Shown here piece by piece: positions 723-64,000 of a stretch of DNA of 64,000 bases. The stretch's first letter is position 1. Each line of letters starts with the position of its first letter. The notes under the pieces are model-generated. The model worked only from the letters and a program-made list of their open reading frames with translations. It made no database searches and was not told the DNA's origin. Both the position numbers and the translations under genes were made by a program. This stretch comes from Clostridia bacterium. GTDB lineage: Bacteria; Bacillota; Clostridia; Oscillospirales; CAG-272. The DNA lies in contig JAGBEE010000003.1 in assembly GCA_017937135.1 (NCBI GenBank), positions 8,637-72,636 on the forward strand, given 5' to 3'.

Positions 723-2204
723 ATGAAAAAATTACTAACATTGATGCTTCTTATATGCGTGCTCGTTTCAACCTTTATCTTGGCATCGTGCTCTGGTGTC
801 AGCGTAGAGGCTGTAAAGGAAGACCCAGCATCAGCAATTACAGAGGCAACAGCTAATGCTACTACAGGCATTTTCGCTGATGAAACAAATACAGGCAAAG
901 CAGTTATGGAAGCACTTAACAAGGGTGCAATTGTTCTCGAGGTAGAGGGCAAGGACATTCTTGGAGAGGGTAACAAGATTACACAGACAATCTATATTGA
1001 TTCTGAAAACGGAAAATATGCTTCCGACACTAACGTAAAAATGGGCGAGGATGTAATAAGTGCGCTCGTTTACTTAGGACAAAACAAGCTTGCTATCAAC
1101 TCAAACGCTCTTTTAGGAAGCGATGTAACATATTTGATTGACATCACTACATTTATGGAAAAGTTCGCAGATAGCGAGCTTGCTACACTTTTTGAGCTTA
1201 GCGAGAATGATAAGGCAGAGCTTGAGGAAGCATTTGCTCAAATCAAGGATGCTCTTAATAAAGCACCCACAGATGTTCAAGTATCAGAGGATGAAATTTA
1301 CGCACTTCTTAATCAGACAGTAACCGAGGAAACACTCAAGGTTGGTGAGGATGAAATTGACTGCATTGTTATTTCATACACCTTAGATATGACTACACTT
1401 AAAAGCATTATAGCTAAGTATATCGAGGCTTCAGGATACACAGAACAGGAATTAGCTGAGATTAAAAAGAGCTTAGATGACACATTTAAAAAGCTTGAGG
1501 CTGCAGCAAAGATAGAGGTAACAGACAAGACCTATATCAATAAGAGCGAAAACAAGCTTTACAAAACAACAGCTCTTGTAACAATTGAGCCAAATGAAAA
1601 TAGCTCACTCGCACAATATGGAATTAAGGATAAGATTTCCATAAATTTAGAAACAGTATATGGCGAAAATGATGTTGTTCTTACAATGAAGCTTGGTGGA
1701 CTTGGTGGGCTTCTTGGTGGAGTAGCACCTGCGGCAACAGCGCCAAGTGCAAATATGGAATTAACAGCAGTAGTAGCACTTACAAAGAACGTTACAGATA
1801 AAGCGGTTGTATATGATTTAAGCGCAACCTTTAAGATGCCATCAGTTGAAATGGAGCTTTGTAGCTTAAAATACACATACACCAAGGAAAGTGGCGATTT
1901 TGAAATAGAGGCAGAGCTCAATCAATTGCTTATGGGTACAGAAAAGCCATTCAAGGCTACTGTGGGTGGTAAAATAACATCAAGCGCAAGCGAGGCTAAG
2001 TATCAGCTCACCTCAATCAAATATGGTGAAAAAACATATACCTTTAATATCGCACTTACCTTTAAGTCAGTTGATAAAATTCCTGAAATTCCTGCTGATG
2101 CAAAGGACATAGTTGACCTTACAATAAAGGACATTGAGGACTTTATGACAGCATTCCAAAAAACTCCACTTTATGCAATAATAGCTGAAAATATGGAAAA
2201 ATAA
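723..2204 (+). CDS. Putative lipoprotein of unknown function
   Basis: 493 aa. Signal peptide with lipobox (FILASC). Hydrophilic mature part rich in E/K/T. RBS GAGGTAAAG upstream. Confidence 0.8.
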   Translation: MKKLLTLMLLICVLVSTFILASCSGVSVEAVKEDPASAITEATANATTGIFADETNTGKAVMEALNKGAIVLEVEGKDILGEGNKITQTIYIDSENGKYASDTNVKMGEDVISALVYLGQNKLAINSNALLGSDVTYLIDITTFMEKFADSELATLFELSENDKAELEEAFAQIKDALNKAPTDVQVSEDEIYALLNQTVTEETLKVGEDEIDCIVISYTLDMTTLKSIIAKYIEASGYTEQELAEIKKSLDDTFKKLEAAAKIEVTDKTYINKSENKLYKTTALVTIEPNENSSLAQYGIKDKISINLETVYGENDVVLTMKLGGLGGLLGGVAPAATAPSANMELTAVVALTKNVTDKAVVYDLSATFKMPSVEMELCSLKYTYTKESGDFEIEAELNQLLMGTEKPFKATVGGKITSSASEAKYQLTSIKYGEKTYTFNIALTFKSVDKIPEIPADAKDIVDLTIKDIEDFMTAFQKTPLYAIIAENMEK

Positions 2205-6410: not shown

Positions 6411-6543
6411 TGTGAAATCTCCTTTTCTGTCAATTTTTTGGCGCACATCTTTTGTATTTCACTAAAGAAGCGCGCCGTATGCTCAAAAATATAAAATGTG
6501 GTATAAAATCACCCCTTATTTTGTGGGGGAGTGATACTATTAT

Positions 6544-9934: not shown

Positions 9935-9967
9935 CTTGTTTTCTCCTTGTTTTGTAGTAAGTAGTCT

Positions 9968-11923
9968 TTACTCACTAAATATAAGAATAGGTTTTTCGCT
10001 GACGTTTACTGTAACAATGCCATCCTTTACAGTAAGAGAAGAGGAAACACCGTCTGTATCTCCATTTTCAAACTGTGTAAGAGTAGCCTTAGTTCCATCT
10101 ATATTAAGCTTAAAGCCGTCAACCTTGATATCGTCCATGGTTGGACACCATAGAGCATAGCAGGATTTTCCCTCGCCGTTTTCAAAGCGATAAATCCAAA
10201 CGTTTTCATTTCCCGAATCGATAATCTCGGCAAAATGCATATCATTCATAGTCGCCTTTAGGGTGCTTATGTAATAATATGAGTCCTTGTATTCGCCATT
10301 AACCGTTACAACACCACTTGTGCCATATTTTCCAATGCCGGTTGCCTCATCACCCTCATCGCGTATCATATACATCGCAGCACGGTCAACACCAACAGAT
10401 GCGAACATAAAGTATGCACGCACAAGCCACATAGCTTGAAGCTGTCTTGCTGTGAAATTTGCGTATGGGTGGCACGCATTTTCGGTTTCATAGCTTGTAT
10501 TAGTATCCCAACCAAATTCAGTAACCCAAACCTCAATATCGGGATAATACTTATCTCTGTATTCGCAGAGCTTTTTAACCTCGTCGGTTATACCACCGAT
10601 TTCGGGGCAAACACCAACATAAACCCTGTATCCATTAAAGCTAATTAGCTTTTTACAATATGTATGAACATTAAATGCATCCATAGCAACCTTGCCATCG
10701 GAGCGATTATTTTCCATCCAGAAAACCATAGATTTTATGTATCTTGTCTGTATTCCCGCAAGACCTGCCATAGCAAGCTTCATATTTGGGTCTGCATTTT
10801 TGATGCCGATGCCACTCTTGCTCTCAGTCTTAACAGTGTTTACGTGTCCGTCATAAGCGCAGGAGGTGAGCGCTGCAAGCTCATATGGGGTAAAGCCGTC
10901 ATTTCCCTCACCATTTGGTTCATTTCCAGCCTCTATCCACGTAATGTAGCCAAGATTCATTCGTGTTCCACCTGATACGGTGTAAATTAAATCCTCGGTA
11001 TTTAACGGGTTGTTACCAAATCTAAGCGCTGTTTGATAAATAAGCTCGGAATACATAACGTATGCGCTCGGATCTGTTTTATCCTTGCCCTCAAGAGCAG
11101 GAGAAACGTTTGGGAACATAAAGCAGGGAACACACTGTACACCATGCCTTTTTGTTAATGAGCTATACGCGCTTGTGTATGTAGAGGTAACATTATCACC
11201 AAAGCTTACAGCCTCGTTTGGATATTTTGATTTATCATAAAGCCAAGCCCAGTTTATATAATCCCTAAAATAGCTTGCACATTTTATGTTCTTTTTGCCA
11301 TCTGAGTCTATTCTATTACCGTTCGCGCCAAGGAAATAGCTAAAATCCTTGTAATTGTGCGCCTCGGTATTGACAGGCTCATATTTTGATGTAGCATAGC
11401 CATAGAAAAGAATTTCCCAAGGAGCGTGCTCATTATCAAACAAAAGATTTACATATCTTGTTTCATAGTCAATCTCAATTTTGTGCCAGCCCTTGCCTAA
11501 GCCCTTCGCTTCATATTTTTCTTCATACTTAAAGGGAGTGCCAGCCTCGGCAGTAATTGATGAGGAGTCAGAGCCAAAATAAACGTAAAAGCATTCAACA
11601 TAGCATTTAAGTCCAAAATCAACAGTTACCTCGAAAATGTGTGTTTTGTCCTTGTCGGTTAAATCACCGTCATTATCTGCATCAAGCAGCTCAAGTGCGC
11701 TTTTTGGCGCTTGGTGCTTGGAAATATCTGGGGTGAGATGAATATTGCCAATGCTTGTTTGCTCATCAAACATAGGTGAGAAGTCCTTTAAGGACGTGCC
11801 TACATATGTCATATTCTCATAATCAATTGGTAGTAGCTTCGTGTCCTCTGAGCAAGCAGAGAAGGCTAATATAGCGCATAAAACCAAAGCGCAAAGGCAA
11901 ATCTTTAAAAACTTAGTCTTCAT
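9968..11923 (-). CDS. Clan GH-A-like glycoside hydrolase lipoprotein
   Basis: 651 aa. Lipobox signal peptide (LAFSAC). Motifs GNEPNGEG and WVTEFGWDTN. Same architecture as 7973..9934. Confidence 0.75.
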   Translation of the reverse strand: MKTKFLKICLCALVLCAILAFSACSEDTKLLPIDYENMTYVGTSLKDFSPMFDEQTSIGNIHLTPDISKHQAPKSALELLDADNDGDLTDKDKTHIFEVTVDFGLKCYVECFYVYFGSDSSSITAEAGTPFKYEEKYEAKGLGKGWHKIEIDYETRYVNLLFDNEHAPWEILFYGYATSKYEPVNTEAHNYKDFSYFLGANGNRIDSDGKKNIKCASYFRDYINWAWLYDKSKYPNEAVSFGDNVTSTYTSAYSSLTKRHGVQCVPCFMFPNVSPALEGKDKTDPSAYVMYSELIYQTALRFGNNPLNTEDLIYTVSGGTRMNLGYITWIEAGNEPNGEGNDGFTPYELAALTSCAYDGHVNTVKTESKSGIGIKNADPNMKLAMAGLAGIQTRYIKSMVFWMENNRSDGKVAMDAFNVHTYCKKLISFNGYRVYVGVCPEIGGITDEVKKLCEYRDKYYPDIEVWVTEFGWDTNTSYETENACHPYANFTARQLQAMWLVRAYFMFASVGVDRAAMYMIRDEGDEATGIGKYGTSGVVTVNGEYKDSYYYISTLKATMNDMHFAEIIDSGNENVWIYRFENGEGKSCYALWCPTMDDIKVDGFKLNIDGTKATLTQFENGDTDGVSSSLTVKDGIVTVNVSEKPILIFSE

Positions 11924-12109
11924 TTTATTTCATTAATATTCCATTCAAATTATCAATATAGAAAAATGCTACTTTAAGTATAATATAACATAGCGAAAAA
12001 GTCAATAAAATGTGCATTTTTTCCAAAAATAAATTCGGCTCAAATGTTATTTTTGCTTAAAGAGCACAAATATGCAAAATGCATCACATTAAGACAAAGA
12101 AAATATAGC

Positions 12110-12133
12110 TTTTTCAACAGTTGCGTTGAAAAA
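12110..12133. promoter_or_regulatory. Perfect 9-bp inverted repeat in the divergent control region
   Basis: TTTTTCAAC-AGTTGC-GTTGAAAAA, in the middle of the 453-bp spacer between the two divergent operons. Confidence 0.35.
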
Positions 12134-12300
12134 TACCCAACCCAGTGTTTAAAAAAGCATAAAAGATTACATTTTTTAAAAGCAAGATGCTTTGTTAATT
12201 TTTTTTGAACATACTACAAATAAAAAATGTTTTATCGACACTCCTTGACACTTTTTGCTTGATAACGCTCTTATATGGTAGCTTGTACCACTTGACAGAC

Positions 12301-12329
12301 TTGACTTTTTATATATTTTATGATATTAT
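12301..12329 (+). promoter_or_regulatory. Candidate SigA-type promoter of the lipoprotein operon
   Basis: TTGACT, 17-nt spacer, TATTAT. About 48 nt upstream of the ATG at 12377. Confidence 0.45.
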
Positions 12330-12376
12330 ATATTTCGGCTATAATATTAGTTAATAATTTATATAGGAGATAAAAT

Positions 12377-15300
12377 ATGAAGAAGATGAAAAAGGCGCTT
12401 ACCCTATTCTTAGCGCTCCTTATGCTCGCAACGGTTGTTTTGCAAATGGTTGCTTGCGGTGTGACAGAGGACCCTGTGGATACAGGCTCTGAGAATAATG
12501 TTGGTAATGCAACCTACACAGTGAAGATTAAAACACTTGGTAATATGCCACTTAGTGATGTTACTGTGTACTTAATCGACAAGGACGGAAATATCGTCGG
12601 CCGTCCAGGTGTAACCGATTTAGAGGGAGTTGTTTCCTTTACTGCACCTAAATCAAACGATTATTCTATTGAAATTTCTGACGGAGTGCCCGAGGGATAC
12701 TTAGTGGCAGACTCATATAAGCTAAGCGAGGTTGGAAATGAAATAATCCTTACATCAAAGGTAATTGATGATGAAAAAACCGACTCAAATTTTTATGAGA
12801 CGGGAGACATTATGTACGACTTTACCGTTACTGACGTTAATGGCAATGAGGTAAAGCTATCAAAGCTCCTTGAAAAGAACAAGGCAGTTTTATTAAACTT
12901 CTGGTATGTTGACTGCTCCTGGTGTCAAAAGGAATTCCCTGATATGAACGCAGTTTATAAGGACTATAAGGACAAGGGAATAGAAATTGTAGCTCTTAAT
13001 GCAGTTGATACAAATGCTGATATTCTTTCCTATAACAAGCCTTCATCAGGCTATCTTAAGGAGCCACTTGAATTTATTCTTGCTCGCGATACAGCAGGAA
13101 TTACATCTATGTTCAACGTTCAAGGCTTCCCAACAAGCGTAGTTGTTGACCGTTATGGTATGATTAGCGTTATTGAGTCTGGAGCTATAATAGGCGAATC
13201 ATATTTCAAAAATGCCTTTGACCACTTTATATCTCCTGTTTATGAGCAGGGCATTTATCAAAGCTTAAAGGAATTTACCCCTGTAATTAAGCCAAATGTT
13301 GATACTCCTACCTCAGAGGCTGTTAAGGATGCTGTACAAAATGGTGACTTTAACGCAACCTATTCAAATGATGAAAATGAGTACTCATGGCCATTTGTAA
13401 TTGGCGAATATGATGGCAAGAAGGTAATTTATCCTTCTAACAAGAAATACGACAACTCATATGCTACATTGTATATTGACATAGAGCTTCAAGCGGGTCA
13501 GGCATTTATGTTTGATTACTTCTCATCAACAGACCTTGGCTACGACGTTCTTACTATTTCTGCAACAGCAGACGGAATTACAAATGAAATTTATTCAATT
13601 TCAGGTATAGGCGAAGAGTGGGAGAAGTGCTGTGCATATGTTGCTAAGGAAACGGGAACATATCGCATTGCAATGTTCTATGTTAAGGATGAATCCGATT
13701 CCGAGGGCGATGATACAGTATATCTTACAAATCTAAGAGTTGTAGATAGCGAAGAGGTTGATGTTGAAACCTATATTACACGTCCGGCAGTATCAAAGCC
13801 AAACAGCACAGGCTCTGACTTTGAAAGCTATGTAGAAATTGTTCTTGGCGACGACGGATATTACCACGTTGGAACAAAGGACGGCCCAATTCTTCTTGCA
13901 AGACTTATGGGCGTAACACCATTTACTGATAAGTTCACAGACAGATACACAGTTAACGATACTCTTTATAAGAATTTTGTTACAACTGATGAAAACACAG
14001 GAATCTCTAAGTATGGTGAGTTCCTTATTGACGGTGAAAACTGCTTGACAGCATTTATTAGATATTGTAACTATGCATCAAATGCTTCTGTTACAGGCTT
14101 CTGTAGTGTAACACCTGAGCTCAAGACATATCTTGACGCATTTGCAAAGAAGTTCGGCACAGGCTATCACGAAAATCAATGGCTCCAAATGTGCTTCTAT
14201 CTTGATTCCTATGGAACAGACAAGGAATACGAGGACCCAATTAAGGGACTTACCTCATTTAGCGCATACGAGGCAGTAATGGGCGAGCCTAACTCTGTTT
14301 CATACAGTAAGATTCTTCTTCCAAGAGGAAAGCTTTATAGATTCGTTCCAACAGAATCTGGCGTATATAGATTCAGAACAAACTCTAAGCAAGAGGTTCT
14401 TGGCTGGATATTCATTAACGACCACGATTATTGGATAGCTAATGGCGATGATAGAACAATGTATGAGCAAAGTGATCAAGGCTCAAGAGAACCATACTAT
14501 ACAAATCTCGTTGACACAGGTAGAGTTGACCCTGAAACAAAGGAGCCAATTTACGAGGTTGATAACACAAATGCAGAAATCACTGCATACTTAGAGGCAG
14601 GTAAGGAATACTACGTATCCTTTGCATACTATGACCTCTATGGTGTAGGCACATTCACATTTGATATAAGCTACCTTGGTAGCACATACGACTTCTTTGT
14701 AGCTGCATCCTCTGGCGCATTTACAACAGAGCTTCTTCCAGGTGATATATTGGGTGATACTATCTCAGGTGGTGTTGATATTTATCTATCAGCTGACGGA
14801 TATTTCCATCACTTAATTAAGACCTACACAACAGAAGAAGAGGCGCAGGAGGCAGGATTAACTCTTGTACCAAGCGACGTATTACCTGATGATATGGGCA
14901 AATACTACGAGCTTTGTACCTATGATAAATGTACAGTATGTCCTAAGCATGCAAAGGAGCAAGGAGCAGACCTCTCAACAAAGTATTACCACTACCGTGG
15001 CTCAGTGCTTTATGCAGACTTTAAGTTCCCAACAAACATCTTCCAGACAGACCTTATTACTAACCTAATAGACAAGGGTGCGTTCAACTTCACAAGAACG
15101 GAAACAGATGAGGATGCGATTAAGAACGGCTATGTAACAAAGACCGATGACGAGCTCAAGAAGCTGTGGGGAGACAGCTATGAATATGCAATGGATTACT
15201 ATCAGATAGATGATTTAAGAAAAGGCATTTATCACGGAAAGGGTGAAGATAGAACGGAGGAAATTCGTTCTTACCTTGAAAGGATGATACCTGAAACAGT

Positions 15301-15466
15301 AGAAAATCCTGAGCTTCAGGGCTGTGTAATGGTTGATGAGGAGCTGGCTGACCTTCTCCAAAGCCTTATGGATAAGTACAGCTTGACAAACGAGGGCTAT
15401 TCAATAACACACTCATTTGCAAAGCTTTGCTACTACTACAAGCAGCTTGGCACAGTAATTGACTAA
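12377..15466 (+). CDS. Large surface lipoprotein with a prealbumin-like domain, a TlpA/ResA-like thioredoxin domain (CSWC) and uncharacterised C-terminal domains
   Basis: 1029 aa. Lipobox (QMVAC) then GVTEDPVDTGS. Carboxypeptidase-regulatory-like segment (YTVKIKT...VSFTAP). AhpC/TSA-type thioredoxin fold LLNFWYVDCSWCQKEFP...GFPTSVVVD. Confidence 0.85.
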   Translation: MKKMKKALTLFLALLMLATVVLQMVACGVTEDPVDTGSENNVGNATYTVKIKTLGNMPLSDVTVYLIDKDGNIVGRPGVTDLEGVVSFTAPKSNDYSIEISDGVPEGYLVADSYKLSEVGNEIILTSKVIDDEKTDSNFYETGDIMYDFTVTDVNGNEVKLSKLLEKNKAVLLNFWYVDCSWCQKEFPDMNAVYKDYKDKGIEIVALNAVDTNADILSYNKPSSGYLKEPLEFILARDTAGITSMFNVQGFPTSVVVDRYGMISVIESGAIIGESYFKNAFDHFISPVYEQGIYQSLKEFTPVIKPNVDTPTSEAVKDAVQNGDFNATYSNDENEYSWPFVIGEYDGKKVIYPSNKKYDNSYATLYIDIELQAGQAFMFDYFSSTDLGYDVLTISATADGITNEIYSISGIGEEWEKCCAYVAKETGTYRIAMFYVKDESDSEGDDTVYLTNLRVVDSEEVDVETYITRPAVSKPNSTGSDFESYVEIVLGDDGYYHVGTKDGPILLARLMGVTPFTDKFTDRYTVNDTLYKNFVTTDENTGISKYGEFLIDGENCLTAFIRYCNYASNASVTGFCSVTPELKTYLDAFAKKFGTGYHENQWLQMCFYLDSYGTDKEYEDPIKGLTSFSAYEAVMGEPNSVSYSKILLPRGKLYRFVPTESGVYRFRTNSKQEVLGWIFINDHDYWIANGDDRTMYEQSDQGSREPYYTNLVDTGRVDPETKEPIYEVDNTNAEITAYLEAGKEYYVSFAYYDLYGVGTFTFDISYLGSTYDFFVAASSGAFTTELLPGDILGDTISGGVDIYLSADGYFHHLIKTYTTEEEAQEAGLTLVPSDVLPDDMGKYYELCTYDKCTVCPKHAKEQGADLSTKYYHYRGSVLYADFKFPTNIFQTDLITNLIDKGAFNFTRTETDEDAIKNGYVTKTDDELKKLWGDSYEYAMDYYQIDDLRKGIYHGKGEDRTEEIRSYLERMIPETVENPELQGCVMVDEELADLLQSLMDKYSLTNEGYSITHSFAKLCYYYKQLGTVID

Positions 15467-15480
15467 TCAATAAGCTGATA

Positions 15481-15504
15481 TGCCACACGCACACGCGTGT
15501 GGCA
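15481..15504 (+). other. Intercistronic GC-rich hairpin
   Basis: TGCCACACGC-ACAC-GCGTGTGGCA (10 bp), with no T-run. It lies between the first and second lipoprotein genes. Confidence 0.5.
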
Positions 15505-15537
15505 TTGGCTCTTATGATAGTGAAATTTGGAGTAAAA

Positions 15538-17208
15538 ATGAAGAAATCAAAGATACTTTTAATAATAAGCGTGCTCGTTTGCTTTATGCTCCTTGTGTGC
15601 TCCTGTGGAGAGGGTGATCCCGTAGATACATCGAGTGGCACAAATGACGAAACGACACAGACATATACCGTAAAGGTAGTAAACTATAAGGGTGAAGCGC
15701 CGGATAAGGACATTATAGTTGACTTTATGAAGGGCGAACAAATAGTAACTACAAAAAGAACAAATGACAAGGGCGAGGTAAGCGTAGCTCTTGAAAAGGG
15801 CGAATACAAAATAGTGCTTTCATATGCAAAGGGCGCGCCCTATTATGACGCAAGCAAGGCAATATTGACACCAGAGAATAACTCAGTTGAAATTATGCTT
15901 TACGACCTTCCTTTACAGGATAAAATTACAATTTCTCCTGCATATTGGAATGACGAAACGCTTGAATATGACCGTAAGGTATATAATGCAGTTCTTATCA
16001 ACGAGGGTGCAACCCTTGTAAATATAGATGACAAAAACGGTTCATATTACGTATTTACCCCAACGCGAGGCGGTATTTATAAAATTGGCTGTATTGCAAG
16101 CGCCGACGTTAAATTCGGATATTTCGGTGATGCAAACTACGTTCAAGCCGAGAGCCTTGAGCATTTATACAAGGACGGATATTTTGAAATTGAAATTAAG
16201 GACAGTGGTATAAACATAGGAGAGGGAGGAACAACACGCTTGGTATTTGGTGTTACCTCTAAAAAATCAACCGACTGTGTTATTACTATTGAGCGTACAG
16301 GTAATCCTAAGGCAGACCCGCTAAGAATTGACGAAATGCCAAGAGAGGTCTCAGATACAGAATACAAATACGACTATCTTAATTACTTAATAACCGACTT
16401 TGATATTACAAATAAGGAGCTGAAAATCGTATTTAACGAAAACGATGGCTTCTATCATTTGAATACACAAGACGGACCTGTTATTTTTGTAAGAGTAGCA
16501 AGCGATAATGCTTATTCAATATCCTTCTATGATATATGTCAGCTCACATCGCTTCATATGTATGAATATGATGAGGACGGCGCACCTATAAAATACCATA
16601 ATTACAACCCAATTTTTGAGGCATATGCAGAAAAATGCGATGGTGCAGGAATTTGTCCTCTTACAAGCGAGCTTATGAATGCTATCAAAAATGCAGGCGA
16701 GGAAAAGAATTGGTGGAACTTTGAAAATGAGGAAACACCAATGCTTTCAATGACAATTGAAGGCTTGGAATCTGGCGTAACAAAGGAAAACATCTGCCTT
16801 GAAAATGCGTGGGCGTTTGCTTGCTGTTACGTGGATTTTGATGCATTTGGCTCGGAAAGCAGTCCAATCAAATTAGAAATTGGCGACCCTTACGAGAGTA
16901 ACGTAAATGGTACATCTGTTACAAGCTATATAAAATACAACGCCTTAGTAGGCACAGAGGCAACATACCTTAAGCCAGCAACCTTAGGTGGTTATTTAAC
17001 TATTGAGGGCGCAAAAAATATTACAGTAGTATATGATGGCGTAACATACGTAGCTGATAGTGAGGGCAATATAACCGTTGATGGTGTAGAATTTGAGGGC
17101 GAGAATATAGTAGTTCATATCAGTGACCCGGAAAAGACAGCCACAATCACAGCGACAGAAAATGAAAGCGAAATTCGCTTCCAATTTACAACAAGCGAAT
17201 TAAGCTAA
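15538..17208 (+). CDS. Surface lipoprotein with a prealbumin-like domain and a domain shared with 12377..15466
   Basis: Start moved to the ATG at 15538 (GGAG upstream). Lipobox LLVCSC then GEGDPVDTSSG. Segment NDGFYHLNTQDGPVIFVRV...CPLTSELMNAIK aligns with DDGYYHVGTKDGPILLARL...CSVTPELKTYLD of the upstream protein. Confidence 0.8.
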   Translation: MKKSKILLIISVLVCFMLLVCSCGEGDPVDTSSGTNDETTQTYTVKVVNYKGEAPDKDIIVDFMKGEQIVTTKRTNDKGEVSVALEKGEYKIVLSYAKGAPYYDASKAILTPENNSVEIMLYDLPLQDKITISPAYWNDETLEYDRKVYNAVLINEGATLVNIDDKNGSYYVFTPTRGGIYKIGCIASADVKFGYFGDANYVQAESLEHLYKDGYFEIEIKDSGINIGEGGTTRLVFGVTSKKSTDCVITIERTGNPKADPLRIDEMPREVSDTEYKYDYLNYLITDFDITNKELKIVFNENDGFYHLNTQDGPVIFVRVASDNAYSISFYDICQLTSLHMYEYDEDGAPIKYHNYNPIFEAYAEKCDGAGICPLTSELMNAIKNAGEEKNWWNFENEETPMLSMTIEGLESGVTKENICLENAWAFACCYVDFDAFGSESSPIKLEIGDPYESNVNGTSVTSYIKYNALVGTEATYLKPATLGGYLTIEGAKNITVVYDGVTYVADSEGNITVDGVEFEGENIVVHISDPEKTATITATENESEIRFQFTTSELS

Positions 17209-17222
17209 TATAGGAGGAAAAT

Positions 17223-19589
17223 ATGGCAAATATCAAAAAAATGCCCCTTATTTTACTTGTGCTTTGTATTCTTATGAGTGCACTTTTAGTTATCACATCA
17301 TGTGGTGGCACAGAGGACCCGGTTGATACAAGCTCAGGCACAGAATCGGGCAATGGTGGTACAAACACAGACCAAACACCAAAATACGTGATTACCGTGC
17401 TTGATGAATACGAGCTTGGCGTTGAGGGCGTTACAGTTCAGCTTTGCATTGGCGAAAACTGCTTAATGCCTGTAAAAACAGATGCAAACGGTAATGCAAC
17501 CTTTGAAAGCGAGCTTACAGGAACAGCATATGTAACAATAAATAGCGTTCCCGATGGCTACGAAAAGCCAAGCGAGAAGGTTTATCTTGAGGACGGACAA
17601 ACAACCGTAACAATTGAGCTGAATTCAATTGTTGAATACAGCGTAAAGGCTAAGCTTGCGCTTTTTGATAAAAATCTTGTTAATGTAGTTGCAGAGCTAA
17701 GAAGGGTTAGCGATAACTCAGTAGTTAATACACAGGTAACAAACGAATATGGTGTAGCAAAATTCTTAGCGCCAAATGGTGAATATTACGTTTCATTCTC
17801 ACACAAAAACCCAGCCTTCAAGCTCTCAAACCCCGATAAGGAGGGCGAGGCAACAAAGGCATATGGCACATCAAGGCTCATAAATGCAGAATTTATCGAA
17901 ACCTTTGACACACTTGACTACAAGCTCAACATAAAAAATGTAGCTGGCAAGGCAGAGTATGGCATTGTGGTTGAGCTTTACGATGAAAGCTTTACGCTCA
18001 TTGATACATATTATTCCAATGAAAATGGCGACATAGAATTTAGCGCACAAAACGGAAAATATATTGCAGTTGCAAGCTTTAAGAATACACAAACAGTGTA
18101 TGCTTTCAGCCAATATGATTCAATCAGTGGCGAAATGGTGCTTAACACTGAGGATAAGGGCTCAAGCGAAAGCTATGCAGAGCTTGTTCTTAGTATGTTC
18201 GGACATAACGCAACAAGTGGAAAATGGTATTACACATTGAATACCGAAAAGAAAATGATAGTTGTATATAGCGAAACAGCAACAGTTGTATATAACGGAA
18301 AAACCTATACCCCTGATAACGAGGGCAAAATCAGTGTAGTATTTGAAAATGGTAATGGAGTATATCAGATTAACGGTGCAGATGCATACGTTGAATATAT
18401 GGGCGCACCGGGAACTGAATCAAATCCAATTATTATTGACTCAGCAAGCATAAACGGCTATGAAATAACCCTCGATCTTTTAGAGGGTGAGAGCTACTAT
18501 TATGCCTTCAACGCAAATGACGATGCTACAATTACTGTAACAACCAATGATAGCATTCAAATAGTAATAAATGAGGTTTTAAAAAGCTCTTTACCTGTAA
18601 TAAAAGGTGACTACGTTGTAATTCGCCTTTCATCTGATGGAGGCAAAATTGAGGGCGCAAAGGTTAATTTTGCATTTGCAAAGACATATGCAGATTATCA
18701 GATAACCGTTAATAAGGATGGCCAGAGCGCACCTGATGGCACAGCCGTTGAGCTTTACAAGTATGACACAAGCACATGGGAATATCAATTAGTTACAAGC
18801 ACTACAACTAAAAATGGTATTGCAGCCTTTGAAAATGTTGAGGTTTATGCATTTTACTATGTAAAGGTAGTTGCACCTGCTGATTACGAGACTGAAAATG
18901 AGTATGAGCCATTCTTCAATGGCGCAACAAGCACAACAATAGAGCTTAGCCACGTAAGAGATGGTTCACTTGAATATCCATTCTTAATTGATGATTCATA
19001 TGCAGGCGGACTCTTATATGATTATGATTTTACCATAGGCGCAGGTGAAACACTCTACTTTGAGGCAGCACCAAATAACTGTGTGCTCAGCGTAAGCATA
19101 AGTGGCATTATTGTTCAGATATTAGAGGATAAGAATAGCGACGGAATTTACGAAACAGTAACAGATGTTGATTCAAGCTACGTATTTGAGGACAAAATGA
19201 ACCCACCAACAATTCTTATTTCTATAAAGAATGAGGGCGAGGCTGCAGAGGGATCAATTTCCTTTGGCGCTAATAATGGCGAGGTAGGCTCATCCTATGA
19301 TAACGCAATTGAGCTTGACGAGGCAGGAGCATATATAGCTGAAATTACAGAGGGCAAAAATGTTTATTATCTGTACAATGGCGACTATACAGGAAGCACC
19401 TTAAAAATCACAGTAACAGATGCAAACGGAAAGCTCATTTCCGTTACAGCAACTCTTGCTGGCACAAGCGAGTCAGTAGAGACAGACAATGAAATAACCT
19501 CTGATTCAGGCGCATCACTAATATTTGCAATCTCATCACAGGATGCTGATTTTACAGGAAATATTAGCTTTACTATAACAGTTGAATAA
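17223..19589 (+). CDS. Surface lipoprotein with repeated prealbumin-like and PPC-like beta-sandwich modules
   Basis: 788 aa. Lipobox VITSC then GGTEDPVDTSSG. About 4 carboxypeptidase-regulatory-like segments and about 3 segments of the G(S/T)ExxP(I/F)xI...YY type. RBS AGGAGG. Confidence 0.8.
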   Translation: MANIKKMPLILLVLCILMSALLVITSCGGTEDPVDTSSGTESGNGGTNTDQTPKYVITVLDEYELGVEGVTVQLCIGENCLMPVKTDANGNATFESELTGTAYVTINSVPDGYEKPSEKVYLEDGQTTVTIELNSIVEYSVKAKLALFDKNLVNVVAELRRVSDNSVVNTQVTNEYGVAKFLAPNGEYYVSFSHKNPAFKLSNPDKEGEATKAYGTSRLINAEFIETFDTLDYKLNIKNVAGKAEYGIVVELYDESFTLIDTYYSNENGDIEFSAQNGKYIAVASFKNTQTVYAFSQYDSISGEMVLNTEDKGSSESYAELVLSMFGHNATSGKWYYTLNTEKKMIVVYSETATVVYNGKTYTPDNEGKISVVFENGNGVYQINGADAYVEYMGAPGTESNPIIIDSASINGYEITLDLLEGESYYYAFNANDDATITVTTNDSIQIVINEVLKSSLPVIKGDYVVIRLSSDGGKIEGAKVNFAFAKTYADYQITVNKDGQSAPDGTAVELYKYDTSTWEYQLVTSTTTKNGIAAFENVEVYAFYYVKVVAPADYETENEYEPFFNGATSTTIELSHVRDGSLEYPFLIDDSYAGGLLYDYDFTIGAGETLYFEAAPNNCVLSVSISGIIVQILEDKNSDGIYETVTDVDSSYVFEDKMNPPTILISIKNEGEAAEGSISFGANNGEVGSSYDNAIELDEAGAYIAEITEGKNVYYLYNGDYTGSTLKITVTDANGKLISVTATLAGTSESVETDNEITSDSGASLIFAISSQDADFTGNISFTITVE

Positions 19590-22493: not shown

Positions 22494-22538
22494 TAAAATT
22501 CCTCCTTTCAAAAGAATTTAAAATAAATATGGCATATA

Positions 22539-31082: not shown

Positions 31083-32432
31083 ATGAATAGAAAAATAAAA
31101 ATACTCATAGTAGCGCTTATGATTTTGCTCGTAGCGGTATTCGTTGCTTCTTGCTCGGATAATCCATACGAGAATAATGATGAAAACGGATACACGGTAA
31201 GCGTGAAATTTGACGCAAACGGTGGTGCATTCACTACAAACACAACAAGAATTACATATTCTTATGATATTTCTAAATTAAAGACAAACAAAAATGGCAA
31301 GAAGGAAATATCACTTATCGCTCCCGAGGATGAGGATAACGGTAAATCAGGAACATTTACCGCATCAAACCCAGGCTATTTCTTGGCAGGCTGGTACACA
31401 GAAAGAACACCTCTTACCGACGAAAATGGCAAGGAAATAGAGGGAGCATACAAATATTCGGGCAGATGGGACTTTGAAAATGGCAAGCTTGAAATTGACC
31501 CAAATAAGACCCACACCTCAAGCGAGTCCGTAATTACACTCTACGCAGGCTGGATTCCCGAATTTGCATACGAGTTTTATGATGTTGACAGTGGGGAGAA
31601 GGTTGGAGACTACAAGTTTAACCCTGTCCTAACCGACTCGACACTTGTAGTTCCTACATGGGATGCCGAAACAGGAACGCTTACAATGGGCAAATTCCCC
31701 AAGGTAACAGGAAAGACCCTTGAAAAGATTTATTTTGACAAGGCAGGGGAAAATAACGTAAGCGACAAGGTTACCCATCACGGAACATACGACCTTGACA
31801 ATCTCACATCCGAAAATGGTATAATGAAGCTTTACATTGACTACAAGGATGGCGAGTGGTACAAGATTTATAATTTATCGCAATTTTTAACAAACGCAAG
31901 CACAAATGGCTCATACGAAATTTATGCCGACCTTGATTTTAATGAGGTTGTTTGGCCATCAGTATTCACAAGTGGCACATACACAGGAAAAATCATAGGT
32001 AACGGACATACAATTTCAAACGTTTCAATTGAGCAGACAGACAAGAGCAATATCTATTTTGGTATGTTCGGTCAGCTTGCCTCAAGGGCTTCAATAGAAA
32101 ACCTTAATATCACGGGTGCTAAGCTTACAATAGCAGGCGGTAGCCGTTTCCACGATGCTGGATTTGGTCTTTTAGCAGGTAGCATTGCAAGCGAAGCAAC
32201 GTTAACTGGTGTTACAGTTACCGAGTCTAAGGTAGTTATAGACCCAGCCGACCTCGGCTTCCTATATGACGACTACTCACTTGGCTTGCTCTGTGGCGTT
32301 GGCTATGAAAACACAAATATAGATGTTTCTGGCATTACCTGTGAGGCTTTGGCAGATAAGTATGAAATTACAATTGCCACAGTTACAGTAAACGGTAACG
32401 AAATAAAGGTTACACTTGAAAGCGCATATTAA
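31083..32432 (+). CDS. Lipoprotein with a Listeria-Bacteroides-type repeat and a GLUG/beta-helix-like C-terminal region
   Basis: 449 aa. Lipobox FVASC. YTVSVKFDANGGAF repeat signature. C-terminal GNGHTISNVSI...FGLLAGSI pattern. Confidence 0.7.
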   Translation: MNRKIKILIVALMILLVAVFVASCSDNPYENNDENGYTVSVKFDANGGAFTTNTTRITYSYDISKLKTNKNGKKEISLIAPEDEDNGKSGTFTASNPGYFLAGWYTERTPLTDENGKEIEGAYKYSGRWDFENGKLEIDPNKTHTSSESVITLYAGWIPEFAYEFYDVDSGEKVGDYKFNPVLTDSTLVVPTWDAETGTLTMGKFPKVTGKTLEKIYFDKAGENNVSDKVTHHGTYDLDNLTSENGIMKLYIDYKDGEWYKIYNLSQFLTNASTNGSYEIYADLDFNEVVWPSVFTSGTYTGKIIGNGHTISNVSIEQTDKSNIYFGMFGQLASRASIENLNITGAKLTIAGGSRFHDAGFGLLAGSIASEATLTGVTVTESKVVIDPADLGFLYDDYSLGLLCGVGYENTNIDVSGITCEALADKYEITIATVTVNGNEIKVTLESAY

Positions 32433-32475: not shown

Positions 32476-35076
32476 ATGAAAAAGAGAATTCTTGCTTTGA
32501 TACTCTGCATAGTAATGTGCATGGGTACGGTTGCACTCTTCTCAAGCTGCGGTGGTGATAGCGATGCGTTCGTTATTATGTCCGAGGAGCTTGACGGACT
32601 TTTTAATCCGTTCTACGCAACCACAGGTCCTGACAATACTATCGTATCAATGACACAAATCGGTATGGTTACATCTAAGTATGTAAACGGTAAGGTTGAG
32701 GTAGCCTATGGTGATAACGAGGCAGTTGTTACTAAGGATTATCAATCCAAATACGACGCAACAGCAGGAACAGACGGAAAGGGACAAACAACCTTTACCT
32801 ATGTTCTTAAAAACGGAATTAAGTTTTCCGACGGAAAGCCCCTTACAATGAAGGACGTGCTTTTCAACCTTTACGTATATCTTGACCCTGTATATACAGG
32901 CTCATCAACAATGTATTCAACTGCAATTGTAGGTCTTAACGAATACAGAACACAAACAAAGGGTGGCACAAGCGGTGACGAGCAAATCACTAACCAAGCA
33001 ACAGGTCTTGCAAAGAACCGTATTAACGAGCTTAAAAACCTCTTTAACACCTTTGAAACAAAGCCTGGCTCAGGTACATACAAGGCAGACTATGAAACAA
33101 TGAAGGCTGCTATTCTTAAGCACAATCTTTCAAAGCTTTATATGCAAGCAGTTTCTGGCGAAAACATAACAAACGAACAGCTTCTTAAGGATTACGACTA
33201 CACATTGAAGCTCTTTAGAGAGGAGCTTGAAAGAGACTACGTAACAGCTCAAAGCTCATACACAGAGGAGCCATACAAGTCACACGAGGAGTTTAAGGAC
33301 GAGATAACCTGCTTTATGACACTCGAGGGCTATGTAGAAATCACATGGGGCGCAGACAAAAATGGCGTTCCTAACAAGGACAAGTCAAAGATAGAGAGCA
33401 TTAAGCTCGGCTATAACCCTGACACAATAAAGACAAAGGAAGATGCTATTAACCACGTTTATAACGACATAGTATCTACAAAGCTCAATCAAATTCTTGA
33501 ATACTGGGCAACAGCTACAACACTCTTGACAGAGTACACAGCAGAGGCTAAGGAGGTTATCCTTCATAACAAGGCAGGCGCTGACGGAAAATTAAATGTT
33601 GAAAGCATTTCAGGTATCGTTTCACTTGGTCACCACACAGACGTAAAAGAGGTTGAGGTAAACGGTAAGAAATATAAGGTTGCAAGAGAATTCAATGCAG
33701 ACGGCACACCTAAGAATGCAGATGAGTATGAGGTATTACAAATTACCATTTCTGGTAAGGACCCTAAGGCTCAATGGAACTTTGCATTCTCAGTAGCACC
33801 TCAGCACTACTATGGTGAGGGTAGCTCAGTTGGAATTAACCTTGCTAAGCACCAATATGGCGTTGAGTTTGGTAAATATTCCTTTATGACAAAGATTGTA
33901 CAATCTCCAAGAAACATTAAGGTACCTGTAGGTGCAGGTGCTTACAAGGCAACAGACCGTGAAAACAACGACAATCCAGCAGGTGACGCATTCTACTCAG
34001 ATAAGGTAGTTTACTTCAAGGCAAACGACCAATTCTATACAGTAGGAAGCGGACTTCACAACGCAAAAATTGAAAAAATTCGTTATCAGGTAATTCCTGC
34101 AAACGATGCAATACAAATGCTCGAAAAGGGCTCTGTTCACTACATCACTCCACAGCTTACAACAGAGAACTACAAAAAGCTCAAGGACATGGACGGTAAT
34201 GGATATAGCTATATCCTTGAGGATCAGCTCGGCTATGGTTATATCGGTATTAACGCAAGCGAAATACCAAACATCAATATTCGTAAGGCTATTATGAGCG
34301 CAATGAATACAACTCTTGCTCTCAACTACTACTCAGCGGGTACAGCATCACAGATTTACTATCCAATGTCAACAGTAAGCTGGGCGCACCCTGTTGATGA
34401 TAAGGGTAACCCACTCACAAAAAACGGAGCAGGCTATCCACAGGTAAATAATAAATTTATCGAATCAGTAGCAATAAACAAAATCAAGGAATATATGAAG
34501 GCAGCAGGAGTTAGCGAGGGAGATCCATCACTTGAAATCACATTTACAATTGCAGGCTCTAACCTTCAAGACCACCCAACCTACGAAACCTTCAGAGACG
34601 CAGCAGCGCTTCTTAACAGCCTTGGCTGGCAGGTAACAGTAGTTCCAGATACACAAGCACTCACAAAGCTTGCAACAGGCTCACTTGCAGTTTGGGCAGC
34701 AGCTTGGGGCTCAACAATAGACCCTGATATGTATCAGGTTTACCACAAGAACTCATCAGCAACAAGCACACTTGCATGGGGCTATCCTTCAATCAAGACA
34801 AGTGGTAGCGCAGAGGAAAAGAAAATCCTTAACGAGCTTAGTAAGCTAATTGACGATGCAAGAAAGGTTCTTAACGAGGAGGAGCGTGCACCTATTTACA
34901 AGCAAGCAATGGAAAAGGTGCTTGAGCTTGCTATTGAGCTTCCTGTATATCAACGTAGCGTAGTTTACGCATACAATTCAGATGTAATTAACTCATCATC
35001 CTTGCCAGAGGCAAGAAACCCATACTCATCACCACTTGATAGAATTTGGGAAATTGAATTTGTAAACGCGGAGTAA
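32476..35076 (+). CDS. Oversized family-5 (peptide/nickel, OppA/DppA-like) ABC substrate-binding lipoprotein
   Basis: 866 aa. Lipobox LFSSC. SBP_bac_5-type segments (FKFSDGKPLTMKDVLFN..., GYGYIGINA..., DPDMYQVYH). Confidence 0.8.
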   Translation: MKKRILALILCIVMCMGTVALFSSCGGDSDAFVIMSEELDGLFNPFYATTGPDNTIVSMTQIGMVTSKYVNGKVEVAYGDNEAVVTKDYQSKYDATAGTDGKGQTTFTYVLKNGIKFSDGKPLTMKDVLFNLYVYLDPVYTGSSTMYSTAIVGLNEYRTQTKGGTSGDEQITNQATGLAKNRINELKNLFNTFETKPGSGTYKADYETMKAAILKHNLSKLYMQAVSGENITNEQLLKDYDYTLKLFREELERDYVTAQSSYTEEPYKSHEEFKDEITCFMTLEGYVEITWGADKNGVPNKDKSKIESIKLGYNPDTIKTKEDAINHVYNDIVSTKLNQILEYWATATTLLTEYTAEAKEVILHNKAGADGKLNVESISGIVSLGHHTDVKEVEVNGKKYKVAREFNADGTPKNADEYEVLQITISGKDPKAQWNFAFSVAPQHYYGEGSSVGINLAKHQYGVEFGKYSFMTKIVQSPRNIKVPVGAGAYKATDRENNDNPAGDAFYSDKVVYFKANDQFYTVGSGLHNAKIEKIRYQVIPANDAIQMLEKGSVHYITPQLTTENYKKLKDMDGNGYSYILEDQLGYGYIGINASEIPNINIRKAIMSAMNTTLALNYYSAGTASQIYYPMSTVSWAHPVDDKGNPLTKNGAGYPQVNNKFIESVAINKIKEYMKAAGVSEGDPSLEITFTIAGSNLQDHPTYETFRDAAALLNSLGWQVTVVPDTQALTKLATGSLAVWAAAWGSTIDPDMYQVYHKNSSATSTLAWGYPSIKTSGSAEEKKILNELSKLIDDARKVLNEEERAPIYKQAMEKVLELAIELPVYQRSVVYAYNSDVINSSSLPEARNPYSSPLDRIWEIEFVNAE

Positions 35077-49516: not shown

Positions 49517-50941
49517 ATGAAAAAATTTATATTTTTATTAATTTCACTTTTGTTGATTATATCATTACTTGCATCCTGTGGAGAAGGTAGCGACCCAATA
49601 GACACCTCTTCACAATTGGAAACGGGTAGTGAGGAAAACAAAAACCCCGAGCCCAAACCCGAACCCGAACCTATGCCCGACCCCGAGCCCGAGCCTGAGC
49701 CTGACCCAGAACCAAACCCCGACCCAGAACCTAAACCCGAGCCCGAGCCTGAGCCCGAAATTACAAGCATTGAAATTGCCAAGGATGGTATTAGCAATTA
49801 TGTAATAGTTTACTCACTTAATAACAAGGTGGTAAAGGAAAATGCGCTTTTATTTCAGTCATATTTAAAGGATACATATTCAATAGAGCTTGACTGTATA
49901 AAGACAAGCGAGGCACAGGCATCACAGGACAAGAGGATAATTTTCGGCGCATATAAGGGCGACGAGGCGCAAAGACTCACAAGTGGAGATTTTGGAGTGT
50001 TTATGGATGGAGATGACCTCGTTATAACTGCTACAACAAACAACCTATATCCCTACCTTATGGACATATTAAGAGATGATATTTTAAAAGACATTCAAAA
50101 CGGTAGCTGGACAGTAAACAAGGAAGATGATTTTATATACACAAATTCATCATATAAGGATATTGGCTATGTAGAATATATGGTTAGTAAGAATGGTAGC
50201 TTCTCCGAGACACTTTACGAGAAAATTCTAACCTACCAAACTTTTACGTCTGAGGATGGAACAGTATTGCCATACAGAATGTACGTTCCATATGAATATG
50301 ATAAGGATAAGAGCTACCCTGTGTTTGTTTTCTTGCACGGAGCAGGTGAGCGTGGAACTGACAATGTATCACAGCTAAAGAATTTGATAAAGCCATTATT
50401 TGCATTTGAAGGCTCACCGCTTCTTGATGCGATAGTTATTTGTCCTCAATGCCCTTCAGCTAATGACAACAAATGGGTAGATACACCTTGGGAAAACGGA
50501 AACTATCGCGTTGACAAGGTGGCACAGTCAAACGAATTAAAGGCAGTAATGGAGCTGTTTGAAAAAATTGAAAATACCTATTCAACAGATTTGAATAGAT
50601 ACTATGCAATGGGGCTTTCAATGGGTGGCTTTGGCGCGTGGGATTTACTTATGCGCGCGCCCGAAAGATTTTGTGCAATAGTTGCCCTTTGTGCAGGTGC
50701 AGACCCATCTATGGCAGAGGCGCTTAAAAATAAGCCGATTTACACCTTGCACGGAACTAATGATAACGTTGTTCCAATTACAGGCACACAGGAAATGGTA
50801 GATGCATTAAAGAAGGCGGGAAGCACCTCTATAATATACGAGGAAATGCAAGACTATGGGCACAACGTATGGGGATACGTATCCACAAAGCCTGAGATTT
50901 TAGAGTGGCTATTTTCACAAGGGGTGAGCGAAAATGAGTAG
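49517..50941 (+). CDS. Lipoprotein esterase (alpha/beta hydrolase) with a Pro-Glu-rich linker
   Basis: 474 aa. Lipobox LLASC then [13 protein letters not shown] linker. C-terminal hydrolase motifs [20 protein letters not shown] (GxSxG), [16 protein letters not shown]. Confidence 0.8.
49643..49759 (+). repeat. Low-complexity (P-E/D/K)n coding repeat
   Basis: [39 protein letters not shown], with 6-nt periodic CCNGAN DNA. The antisense frame gives a spurious GS-rich ORF. Confidence 0.9.
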
Positions 50942-53007: not shown

Positions 53008-53583
53008 ATGAGAAAGAAAATATTAAGCTTTATTTTAGCAATTTGTTTGATTATACCTTGCGCTTTTATGTTTTCGTCTTGTGGGGAAGATGATGTTGTT
53101 TTGCCGAATGGTGCTTTTACAGTTAAGGGAAAAACATTTGAAATTACAGATGAAGTTAGAATTATTTGGGACGAGGGTCTTTCTGACACTCTAAAATCAA
53201 CCTTCCTTCAGTTTCAAAACAATGGTGTGCCAATAAGTGAAGCGGACTTTGTTGCAAGGGTTAAGAAGGTTGCAATAGAAATGAAAAACAAACACACAGA
53301 GCTTGAATTTTCTAAAGAATATGACGATGATAAAAAGGGCTATAAAATTATTATAAGTAACGATGAAAAATCTGATAGCTCTGAAACATATTATCAGCCT
53401 GATGATTGTTCATATGTAGGTTATGGCATGGGAGCTGTAACGTTTGATGGTGATTGTGGAACGATAATGTATGTTGGTGATGGAAAATATGGCTTGGTGT
53501 ATGGTGGCTATCGCCCAGGTGACAATCCTTCTCCTCATATGATGAACACAAATATAGTTATTATTTTGAAGGTAAAACAATAG
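53008..53583 (+). CDS. Small lipoprotein of unknown function
   Basis: 191 aa from the ATG at 53008 (AAAGGAG upstream). Lipobox MFSSC. Confidence 0.7.
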   Translation: MRKKILSFILAICLIIPCAFMFSSCGEDDVVLPNGAFTVKGKTFEITDEVRIIWDEGLSDTLKSTFLQFQNNGVPISEADFVARVKKVAIEMKNKHTELEFSKEYDDDKKGYKIIISNDEKSDSSETYYQPDDCSYVGYGMGAVTFDGDCGTIMYVGDGKYGLVYGGYRPGDNPSPHMMNTNIVIILKVKQ

Positions 53584-63828: not shown

Positions 63829-64000
63829 AATGAAAAAATTTTTACTTGGAATTGTGTTAGTAATCTCAATTCTATTTGTATTTTCAAGCTGTATAACATC
63901 AGTTGAATTTGATGTTAATTTTATGGTTGAGGGTGAGGTTTATTACACCATTTCAACAAGTGGAACAGAGGCACTTAAAATGCCAGAAAACCCAACTAAG
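63829..64000 (+). CDS. Lipoprotein, 5' fragment (runs off the window)
   Basis: ATG at 63829 with AAAGGAGAAGG upstream. Lipobox VFSSC. Continues FDVNFMVEGEVYYT (Listeria-Bacteroides-repeat-like). Not in the ORF track because it is truncated by the window end. Confidence 0.7.

Follow-up and report, generated by a model that had tools for sequence, protein, structure and literature searches.

The region that follows the lipidated Cys of Gram-positive lipoproteins is seen as a spacer, and these proteins are generally held to bear no information past the lipobox. Here, we describe a heptapeptide, D-P-[VI]-D-T-[GS]-S, that occupies this region in otherwise unrelated lipoproteins of an uncultured Clostridia species. 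The window that was analysed is a stretch of 64,000 nucleotides of a Clostridia bacterium (GenBank assembly GCA_017937135.1, contig JAGBEE010000003.1, positions 8,637 to 72,636 of the forward strand), with a GC content of 39% and about ten lipoprotein genes.

Results

Four lipoproteins of the window share a peptide after the lipobox

Four of the window lipoproteins carry the motif C-G-x(2-3)-D-P-[VI]-D-T-[GS]-S directly after the lipobox Cys (Table 1). Three of the genes (genes 1–3) are adjacent, and the mature part of each product starts with an Ig-like or prealbumin-like domain. Their post-lipobox residues are CGVTEDPVDTGSE (gene at 12377), CGEGDPVDTSSG (gene at 15538) and CGGTEDPVDTSSG (gene at 17223). 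The fourth gene, at 49517, encodes an esterase. When all six frames of the window were scanned for [DE]P[VIL]DT, these four sites were the sole matches. An earlier note on this DNA had listed the same four instances, and all were found as claimed. Its statement that the mature domain of the esterase is unrelated to those of the other three carriers was also borne out, as was its claim that six further lipoproteins lack the motif, with one start corrected from 63829 to the ATG at 63830. More generally, our analysis supports what the note had proposed, namely that some lipoproteins, although their mature domains are unrelated, carry a short conserved peptide at the start of the mature protein. 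The motif was covered by none of the curated NCBIfam and Pfam models with which the N-terminal 50 residues were compared, and the literature searched described neither this motif nor a similar one for Firmicutes.

Two of the gene models deserve a comment. The open reading frame (ORF) of lipoprotein 2 opens at GTG 15499, a canonical signal peptide begins only from ATG 15538, and public calls give the protein 564 or 556 amino acids (aa). Its signal peptide also had a sub-threshold match (16 bits, cut-off 37) to NCBIfam NF058595, described as a "lipo-invert putative C-terminal anchoring domain". Lipoprotein 3 is represented in two NCBI assemblies of the same species by a 350-aa version of the 788-aa protein (P0301 and P0302) with the N-terminal motif intact, and this version is possibly due to a truncation, a frameshift or a contig break.

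Table 1. Lipoprotein genes of the window, with and without the post-lipobox motif
Feature	Position	Strand	Description
Lipoprotein 1, 1029 aa	12377..15466	+	Ig-like + thioredoxin/AhpC-TSA (ResA-like) domain + large C-terminal region; Cys codon 12455-12457
Motif core D-P-V-D-T-G-S, lipoprotein 1	12470..12490	+	GAC CCT GTG GAT ACA GGC TCT; mature residues +6 to +12
Lipoprotein 2, 556 aa from ATG 15538	15538..17208	+	Ig-like N-terminal domain; Cys codon 15604-15606
Motif core D-P-V-D-T-S-S, lipoprotein 2	15616..15636	+	GAT CCC GTA GAT ACA TCG AGT; residues +5 to +11
Lipoprotein 3, 788 aa	17223..19589	+	SdrD_B / CarboxypepD_reg / SpaA-type Ig-like folds; Cys codon 17301-17303
Motif core D-P-V-D-T-S-S, lipoprotein 3	17316..17336	+	GAC CCG GTT GAT ACA AGC TCA; residues +6 to +12
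Lipoprotein 4, 474 aa	49517..50941	+	Short tether, (P-E/D) spacer of ~50 residues, esterase / alpha-beta hydrolase domain; Cys codon 49577-49579
Motif core D-P-I-D-T-S-S, lipoprotein 4	49592..49612	+	GAC CCA ATA GAC ACC TCT TCA; residues +6 to +12
Lipoprotein without motif	723..2204	+	CSGVSVEAV...
GH-like lipoprotein without motif	9968..11923	-	CSEDTKLLPIDY...
Lipoprotein without motif	31083..32432	+	CSDNPYENNDENGYTV...
SBP_bac_5 oligopeptide-binding lipoprotein without motif	32476..35076	+	CGGDSDAFVIM...
Small lipoprotein without motif	53008..53583	+	CGEDDVVLPNGAF...
Flg_new-repeat lipoprotein without motif, 758 aa	63830..64000	+	CITSVEFD...; extends past the window end

Two further carriers lie at unlinked loci of the same species

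When 1.84 billion representative proteins were searched exhaustively with a HMMER profile, the four window proteins were recovered, along with a short series of further matches. Two of the latter, both full-length profile matches, are the fifth and sixth carriers: P0007, a protein of 516 aa with no Pfam match and the post-lipobox residues CGGTDDPVDTGSGG, and P0010, a BspA-type leucine-rich repeat (LRR) protein of 767 aa with CGGTDDPVDTGSQG. They were assigned to the window species because their NCBI accessions belong to the same two series of metagenome-assembled genomes (MAGs) as the window redoxin protein (lipoprotein 1). The samples are the same as well, and the contigs have 38–39% GC. Cluster look-ups assigned none of the weaker profile matches (P0017–P0038) to this species; one of these, P0036, sits on a contig of ~0.5 kb with 37% GC from the same ruminant study. 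The contig of P0005, likewise of ~0.5 kb, has 57% GC and thus comes from a different organism. A word-indexed protein search with a 46-column N-terminal profile gave nine candidates and no match, and a PDB sequence search with P0007 gave no useful match.

The window species, an uncultured ruminant-gut Clostridia, hence has six or more carriers. They map to four unlinked loci and represent at least four unrelated types of passenger: redoxin-Ig, two Ig-like proteins, the esterase, P0007 (a family of ~510 aa) and P0010 (BspA-type LRR). The earlier note had listed confinement to its four proteins among the conditions that would count against its reading; the two additional carriers show that the motif is not so confined. 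All six read C-G-[GEV]-[TG]-(x)-D-P-[VI]-D-T, and position +2 is Gly in each of them. The core D-P-[VI]-D-T-[GS]-S is spaced three to four residues from the lipidated Cys, with C-G-x2-3 in every carrier. In 77 kb of species DNA that was not chosen by the motif, 4/10 lipoproteins have it. The shorter pattern P[VI][DE][TS] occurs eight times in ~41,000 residues of the species' ORFs, six times at the post-lipobox site and once as a second copy (EPIDT) farther along the tether of P0007.

The core is conserved by selection

An alignment of the four 5' regions revealed no extended identity, and the signal peptides are unlike in both length and sequence. Third codon positions of the core differ between the genes nearly throughout: Pro is encoded by CCT, CCC, CCG and CCA, and Ser by both TCN and AGY codons. 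Nei-Gojobori estimates over the six genes of the species gave a saturated pS of 0.75 and a pN of 0.18 for the 7-codon core (pN/pS 0.24), while the seven codons downstream of it had a pS of 0.64 and a pN of 0.65 (pN/pS 1.01). Among eight strain variants of gene 1, a V to I replacement was the sole change in the core, and neighbouring positions were variable. The saturated silent sites, the mixed Ser codon families and the unalignable signal peptides and flanks together argue against any recent recombination. The extended nucleotide identity beyond the motif, by which the earlier note would have recognized a recent duplication or recombination of the 5' gene ends, is therefore absent.

Next, we considered chance. 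The residue composition of 292 Clostridial lipoprotein tails implies a probability of ~1e-6 per lipoprotein for the core, and a strict regular expression matched 0/292 of these background tails. A chance origin is thus excluded, its probability being well below 0.01. The carriers also do not form one paralogous family with a conserved signal peptide and 5' DNA, since the mature domains of the esterase, P0007 and P0010 are unrelated; for genes 1–3 this is only partly so, an Ig-like first domain being common to them. Judged from these sequence comparisons, the motif is very likely real, selected and shared across protein families.

The peptide marks the base of a long hydrophilic tether

The carriers differ from the other lipoproteins in what follows the Cys. 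The first hydrophobic-rich segment begins at +20 to +62 in the six carriers and at +2 to +13 in six non-carriers. These ranges do not overlap, so that the motif marks lipoproteins with a long hydrophilic tether and, within them, the membrane-proximal end of that tether. Downstream of the motif, the tethers are hydrophilic, of low complexity and rich in G, S, T, N and E. Lipoproteins that fold at once after the Cys, including the oligopeptide-binding protein, are without the motif. In conclusion, D-P-[VI]-D-T-[GS]-S is a selected, lineage-specific peptide module, and the tether at whose base it stands is long, hydrophilic and of low complexity.

The same tether position holds repeats in relatives of the esterase. 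In one subclade of its homologues from other Clostridia, the stretch of tether from the lipobox to a PDPEPE spacer is made up of tandem [VI]-D-S-S-T units in 5–11 copies (first ~110 residues of P0190, P0177, P0222, P0191, P0183, P0195 and P0170), eight of them perfect VDSST in P0191. The layout of the window esterase is the same, but a single IDTSS takes the place of the array, and other esterase homologues have TDTD/TDTN or SSSES repeats in this position. Over all collected tethers, V is 1.7-fold enriched before D-[ST] and S is 2.0-fold enriched after it. Such a pattern suits a unit of the tether or a sequon for modification better than a signal used once for sorting or cleavage. The idea that the esterase gained its motif de novo is weakened by these arrays.

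The motif is rare in other genomes and varies between lineages

We scanned 596 Gb of DNA from ~185,000 species-representative genomes with the strict pattern C-G-x-x-[DE]-D-P-[VIM]-D-T-[GST]-[GST], which is blind to x=2 and S-D-P variants. On viral contigs, a looser pattern (TGTGG N4-10 GAYCCNRTNGAYAC) had at least 120 matches, chance ones, and the strict pattern was used instead. The strict scan should match the genes at 12377 and 17223 as well as P0007 and P0010; it returned no locus of the window species, which is therefore missing from the GTDB-representative collection or masked there. There were 10 DNA matches, a number near chance expectation. Five of them are true lipoprotein N-termini, all singletons, from two Clostridia MAGs, one Myxococcota, one Hydrogenophaga and one Serinicoccus. 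Within the families of the carriers the motif is also scarce: it directly follows the Cys in none of the 119 other esterase homologues listed, and of ~90 redoxin-family lipoproteins only a few have related sequences.

The two Clostridia matches, L130 and L138, are 23–25% identical to P0007, and ACGGx[DE]DPVDT is common to both and P0007. A motif conserved as a trait of the P0007-like family was nevertheless rejected, as 0 of ~65 members fetched by mature-domain patterns carry it; the motif is thus a trait of the genome and not of the protein family. In both of these ruminant Clostridia MAGs (L130:1417-4956 and L138:3868-6979), the P0007-like lipoprotein that bears the motif precedes a paralogue in which the motif is degenerate (CGKDEDDLVDTDEE; CGKTEDIPADTTAQ). 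This hints that the motif may decay after duplication where it is not widespread in the genome.

The redoxin gene cluster (genes 1–3) is syntenic in other uncultured Clostridia, whose orthologues are ~40% identical. At the loci L143, L144 and L231 gene 2 is without the motif, and variants of it occur in the genes on either side. In L143, gene 1 reads CGGNDNPPIETGSES and gene 3 reads CGGTENPPIETGSGN, the variant on both being [DE]NPPIETGS. In L144, gene 1 has NNPPVDTGS and gene 3 lies beyond the contig. In L231, gene 1 has GETVDSGS and gene 3 has GEVVDSGT; since Ser is encoded by AGC in one of these genes and by TCG in the other, the change from Thr to Ser was independent in each. The part conserved across lineages is [VI]-[DE]-[TS]-G-[ST], in which the aliphatic, acidic and hydroxyl characters are kept and the hydroxyl and acidic positions change only between T and S or between D and E.

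The neighbourhood of the cluster (7973-19589 in the window) is also conserved in L231, L143 and L144. Two GH-like genes of ~650 aa on the minus strand face the three-gene cluster (redoxin-Ig, Ig-like, multi-Ig); in the window, the first of the pair (7973-9934) is without a signal peptide and the second (9968-11923) is a lipoprotein. Directly upstream of the cluster, L231 (5154-6443) and L144 (1895-3127) encode a GT2 glycosyltransferase (~420 aa) that is soluble and lacks hydrophobic segments. The counterpart position in the window, the intergenic stretch 11924-12376, contains no GT2 gene. This glycosyltransferase is a possible lead to a tether-modifying enzyme.

Comparison with known systems

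The earlier note had likened the motif to the surface-export signal of Bacteroidota lipoproteins. This lipoprotein export signal (LES) has the consensus K-(D/E)2 or Q-A-(D/E)2, located at roughly +2 to +5 relative to the lipidated Cys (Lauber et al. 2016, PMC5080379). Both elements are short acidic peptides directly after the +1 Cys, whose position relative to the Cys matters, and both occur on a subset of lipoproteins with unrelated passengers. However, none of the six carriers has K or Q in the motif, position +2 is Gly, and the core begins only at +5 or +6 and includes Pro, aliphatic and hydroxyl residues. The motif is specific to a species or genus, whereas the LES is phylum-wide. Moreover, the host is presumably a monoderm with no outer membrane to cross. 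Its MAG is labelled "Clostridia bacterium", a SipL/LysM sporulation gene lies nearby, and no outer-membrane biogenesis genes were seen in the ~120 kb of species DNA read, so the host appears, from its gene content, to be a monoderm, spore-forming Clostridia organism. The analogy to the Bacteroidota signal is therefore not supported. Nor do the carriers follow the Lol-avoidance or Asp+2 retention rule (Asp at +2 or defined residues at +3/+4), given the Gly at +2.

The general O-glycosylation sequon of Bacteroidota is reportedly D-[ST]-[AILVMT], a rule attributed to Fletcher et al. 2009 and Coyne et al. 2013. It shares with the motif an acidic residue immediately before a hydroxyl residue. In all six carriers, however, D-T is followed by G or S, which places the motif outside the sequon, and the phylum differs.

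Closer precedents exist in Firmicutes. Membrane-associated proteins of streptococci, including the lipoprotein PrsA, are O-glycosylated in Ser/Thr-rich disordered regions, where the glycan shields them from proteolysis (PMC12041528). The carriers, too, are membrane-anchored proteins with an extracytoplasmic, hydrophilic, Ser/Thr-rich region of low complexity, at the start of which the motif stands with its hydroxyl residues kept. The streptococcal regions differ in having no defined motif and in being C-terminal in PrsA, as opposed to a fixed heptapeptide beside the lipid anchor. In staphylococci, Ser-Asp repeats are glycosylated by SdgA/SdgB, and the stalk is thereby shielded from proteases (PMC3794999, PMC8561734). 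An Asp-Ser/Thr dipeptide is central to these surface-protein stalks as it is to the motif, and the tandem [VI]DSST arrays of the esterase homologues resemble them. The staphylococcal repeats, however, are long dipeptide arrays on LPXTG-anchored proteins, whereas the motif adds D-P and V/I and stands on lipoproteins; the window proteins have a single unit, and arrays occur only in the esterase homologues of other Clostridia. Finally, retention of Staphylococcus aureus lipoproteins depends on Asp(+2), and the proteins concerned include the tandem paralogue cluster Lpl (PMC5727369). As in the carriers, acidic residues near the lipidated Cys of a Gram-positive lipoprotein are involved, and they affect its fate. 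That case rests on a single residue at +2 and mostly on one paralogous family, in contrast to the Gly at +2, the seven-residue motif and the unrelated families found here. The motif can be placed among the information-bearing peptides that are found after the lipobox or in the stalks of surface proteins.

Other genes of the window

Several other genes of the window encode unusual proteins. The 973-aa product of 46327-49248 (minus strand), divergent from the motif-bearing esterase, has an N-terminal Cro/C1-type HTH and C-terminal BspA-type LRR_5 repeats, an unusual pairing, and may act as a regulator that spans the membrane and senses through its LRRs outside the cell. A 654-aa protein (20547-22511, minus strand) combines Fer4_5/4Fe-4S ferredoxin-type domains (NapH/MauN-like) with a C-terminal redoxin/thioredoxin domain; as it adjoins the cluster with the extracytoplasmic ResA-like lipoprotein, it might supply electrons to that thiol-disulfide oxidoreductase. 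Beyond it, 23782-31011 (plus strand) encodes a giant surface protease/adhesin of 2409 aa, an S8 subtilase with a PA insert, Fn3-like and Big_2 domains and seven or more BspA-type LRR_5 repeats. In NrdD, the anaerobic ribonucleotide reductase (4038-6446, minus strand), a thioredoxin/glutaredoxin-like domain is found at the C-terminus (residues ~724-795).

Discussion

Of the possibilities named in the earlier note, glycosylation and a protease site are the leading candidates. The reading that we favour is recognition of the peptide at the base of the tether. Here, an envelope factor acting in trans would read the peptide near the outer face of the membrane. The Thr or Ser after an acidic residue would then receive an O-linked modification, most likely a glycan, and the modified tether would be protected or stiffened in the protease-rich habitat of the gut. 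By analogy with the systems above, O-linked modification of the motif Thr/Ser is a tentative proposal that falls somewhat short of an even chance. In its support, the hydroxyl and acidic positions keep their character, the unit is able to form repeats, and glycan-shielded stalks have precedents in Firmicutes.

Several points weigh against this proposal. No modification enzyme was found: neither GT-A nor GT-C/YfhO proteins were seen in the window and ~55 kb of other loci of the species (~120 kb in total). Seven strongly conserved residues, D-P and an aliphatic one among them, are tighter than known bacterial O-glycosylation sequons, and such a motif would be just as suitable for a protease or a binding partner. 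The G or S in the third sequon position departs from the Bacteroidota rule, and a disordered region could be glycosylated without a near-fixed spacing from the Cys. In addition, two of the supporting comparisons may have simpler causes. The likeness between the motif and VDSST may be compositional, since D, S and T dominate the tethers, and the two L143 copies, 22/24 identical at the DNA level, may reflect a short conversion tract between them.

The motif could instead be a shedding site. An envelope protease would cut in or beside D-P-[VI]-D|T (e.g., after an acidic residue) and free the passenger and its tether into the wall or the medium. Position-specific conservation over seven residues suits the subsite pattern of a protease, the near-fixed anchor distance suits one associated with the membrane, and the interchange of D and E across lineages fits a Glu/Asp-specific endopeptidase. 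Release of Gram-positive lipoproteins is also known to depend on residues near +2 (PMC5727369). On the other hand, a cut at the very base makes a long tether pointless if the protein is to leave the cell; a second core copy in one tether and the tandem arrays in homologues are odd for a single cleavage site; and no candidate protease is linked to the carriers. We therefore consider shedding unlikely, though worth keeping in mind.

A tether base that works without any enzyme is a weaker candidate still. The acidic D-P-x-D would bind cationic lipids or divalent cations, Pro would orient the chain, and large proteins would thereby be held more tightly. Each carrier does have two to three acidic residues within +5 to +9, the motif is found only on large surface proteins with long tethers, and in S. 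aureus an Asp near the N-terminus tightens anchoring via Lys-PG (PMC5727369). Electrostatics alone, however, does not explain why V/I, T and the G/S-S tail are so strictly conserved, and the relatives that replace D-P by N-P-P lose charge yet keep [VI]-[DE]-T-G-S. Such a base is accordingly quite improbable.

Even less probable is a sorting or localisation signal that would send a subset of lipoproteins to an envelope site or machine, in the manner of LES or Lol avoidance. It would account for an acidic motif directly after the lipobox and for the restriction of this motif to some lipoproteins, whose passengers are unrelated. We know of no such pathway in monoderm bacteria, and the host is a Clostridia MAG with a sporulation gene in which no outer-membrane markers were seen. 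The sequence is also unlike LES or the +2 Asp rule (PMC5080379), and in homologues the core unit is repeated in tandem. Both the association with tethers and these tandem repeats fit an element of tether modification or processing better than a sorting signal.

Finally, a historical accident, in which a 5' signal-peptide and linker cassette spread by duplication or recombination and left residual homology without function, could draw on the adjacency of genes 1–3, the Ig-like domain right after the tether in each of them and the nearly identical DNA of the two L143 copies, but it is largely refuted and has only a very slim chance of being correct, because amino acids are kept in a core with saturated silent sites next to seven unconstrained codons, the signal peptides are unalignable, Ser codon families differ among the copies, and three carriers lie at unlinked loci with unrelated passengers.

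Returning to recognition at the tether base, the variants in related genera suggest a more general form of it. Monoderm Clostridia may have a recognition system for a subset of their lipoproteins that is tuned to each lineage, an envelope enzyme or receptor reading the heptapeptide at the base of the tether. The peptide would be D-P-[VI]-D-T-[GS]-S in the species studied here and N-P-P-I-E-T-G-S or x-V-D-S-G-[ST] in related genera, and the reader would modify, process or position the marked lipoproteins. Co-evolution of the motif with its reader would explain why the motif changes in concert in unrelated lipoproteins of one genome. On the sequences at hand we regard this system as possible, if on the unlikely side.

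The finding is a lead and not a discovery, as the evidence comes from one uncultured species and from variants in a few relatives. Within these bounds, the motif is a counter-example to the view of a featureless spacer: a selected peptide that is shared by unrelated lipoproteins, varies between lineages and is tied to the tether. It could also help to predict the modification, shedding or display of surface proteins in uncultured gut Clostridia, and is a possible surface-display tag. Should there be a reader enzyme, it would represent a new step in the maturation of lipoproteins in Firmicutes.

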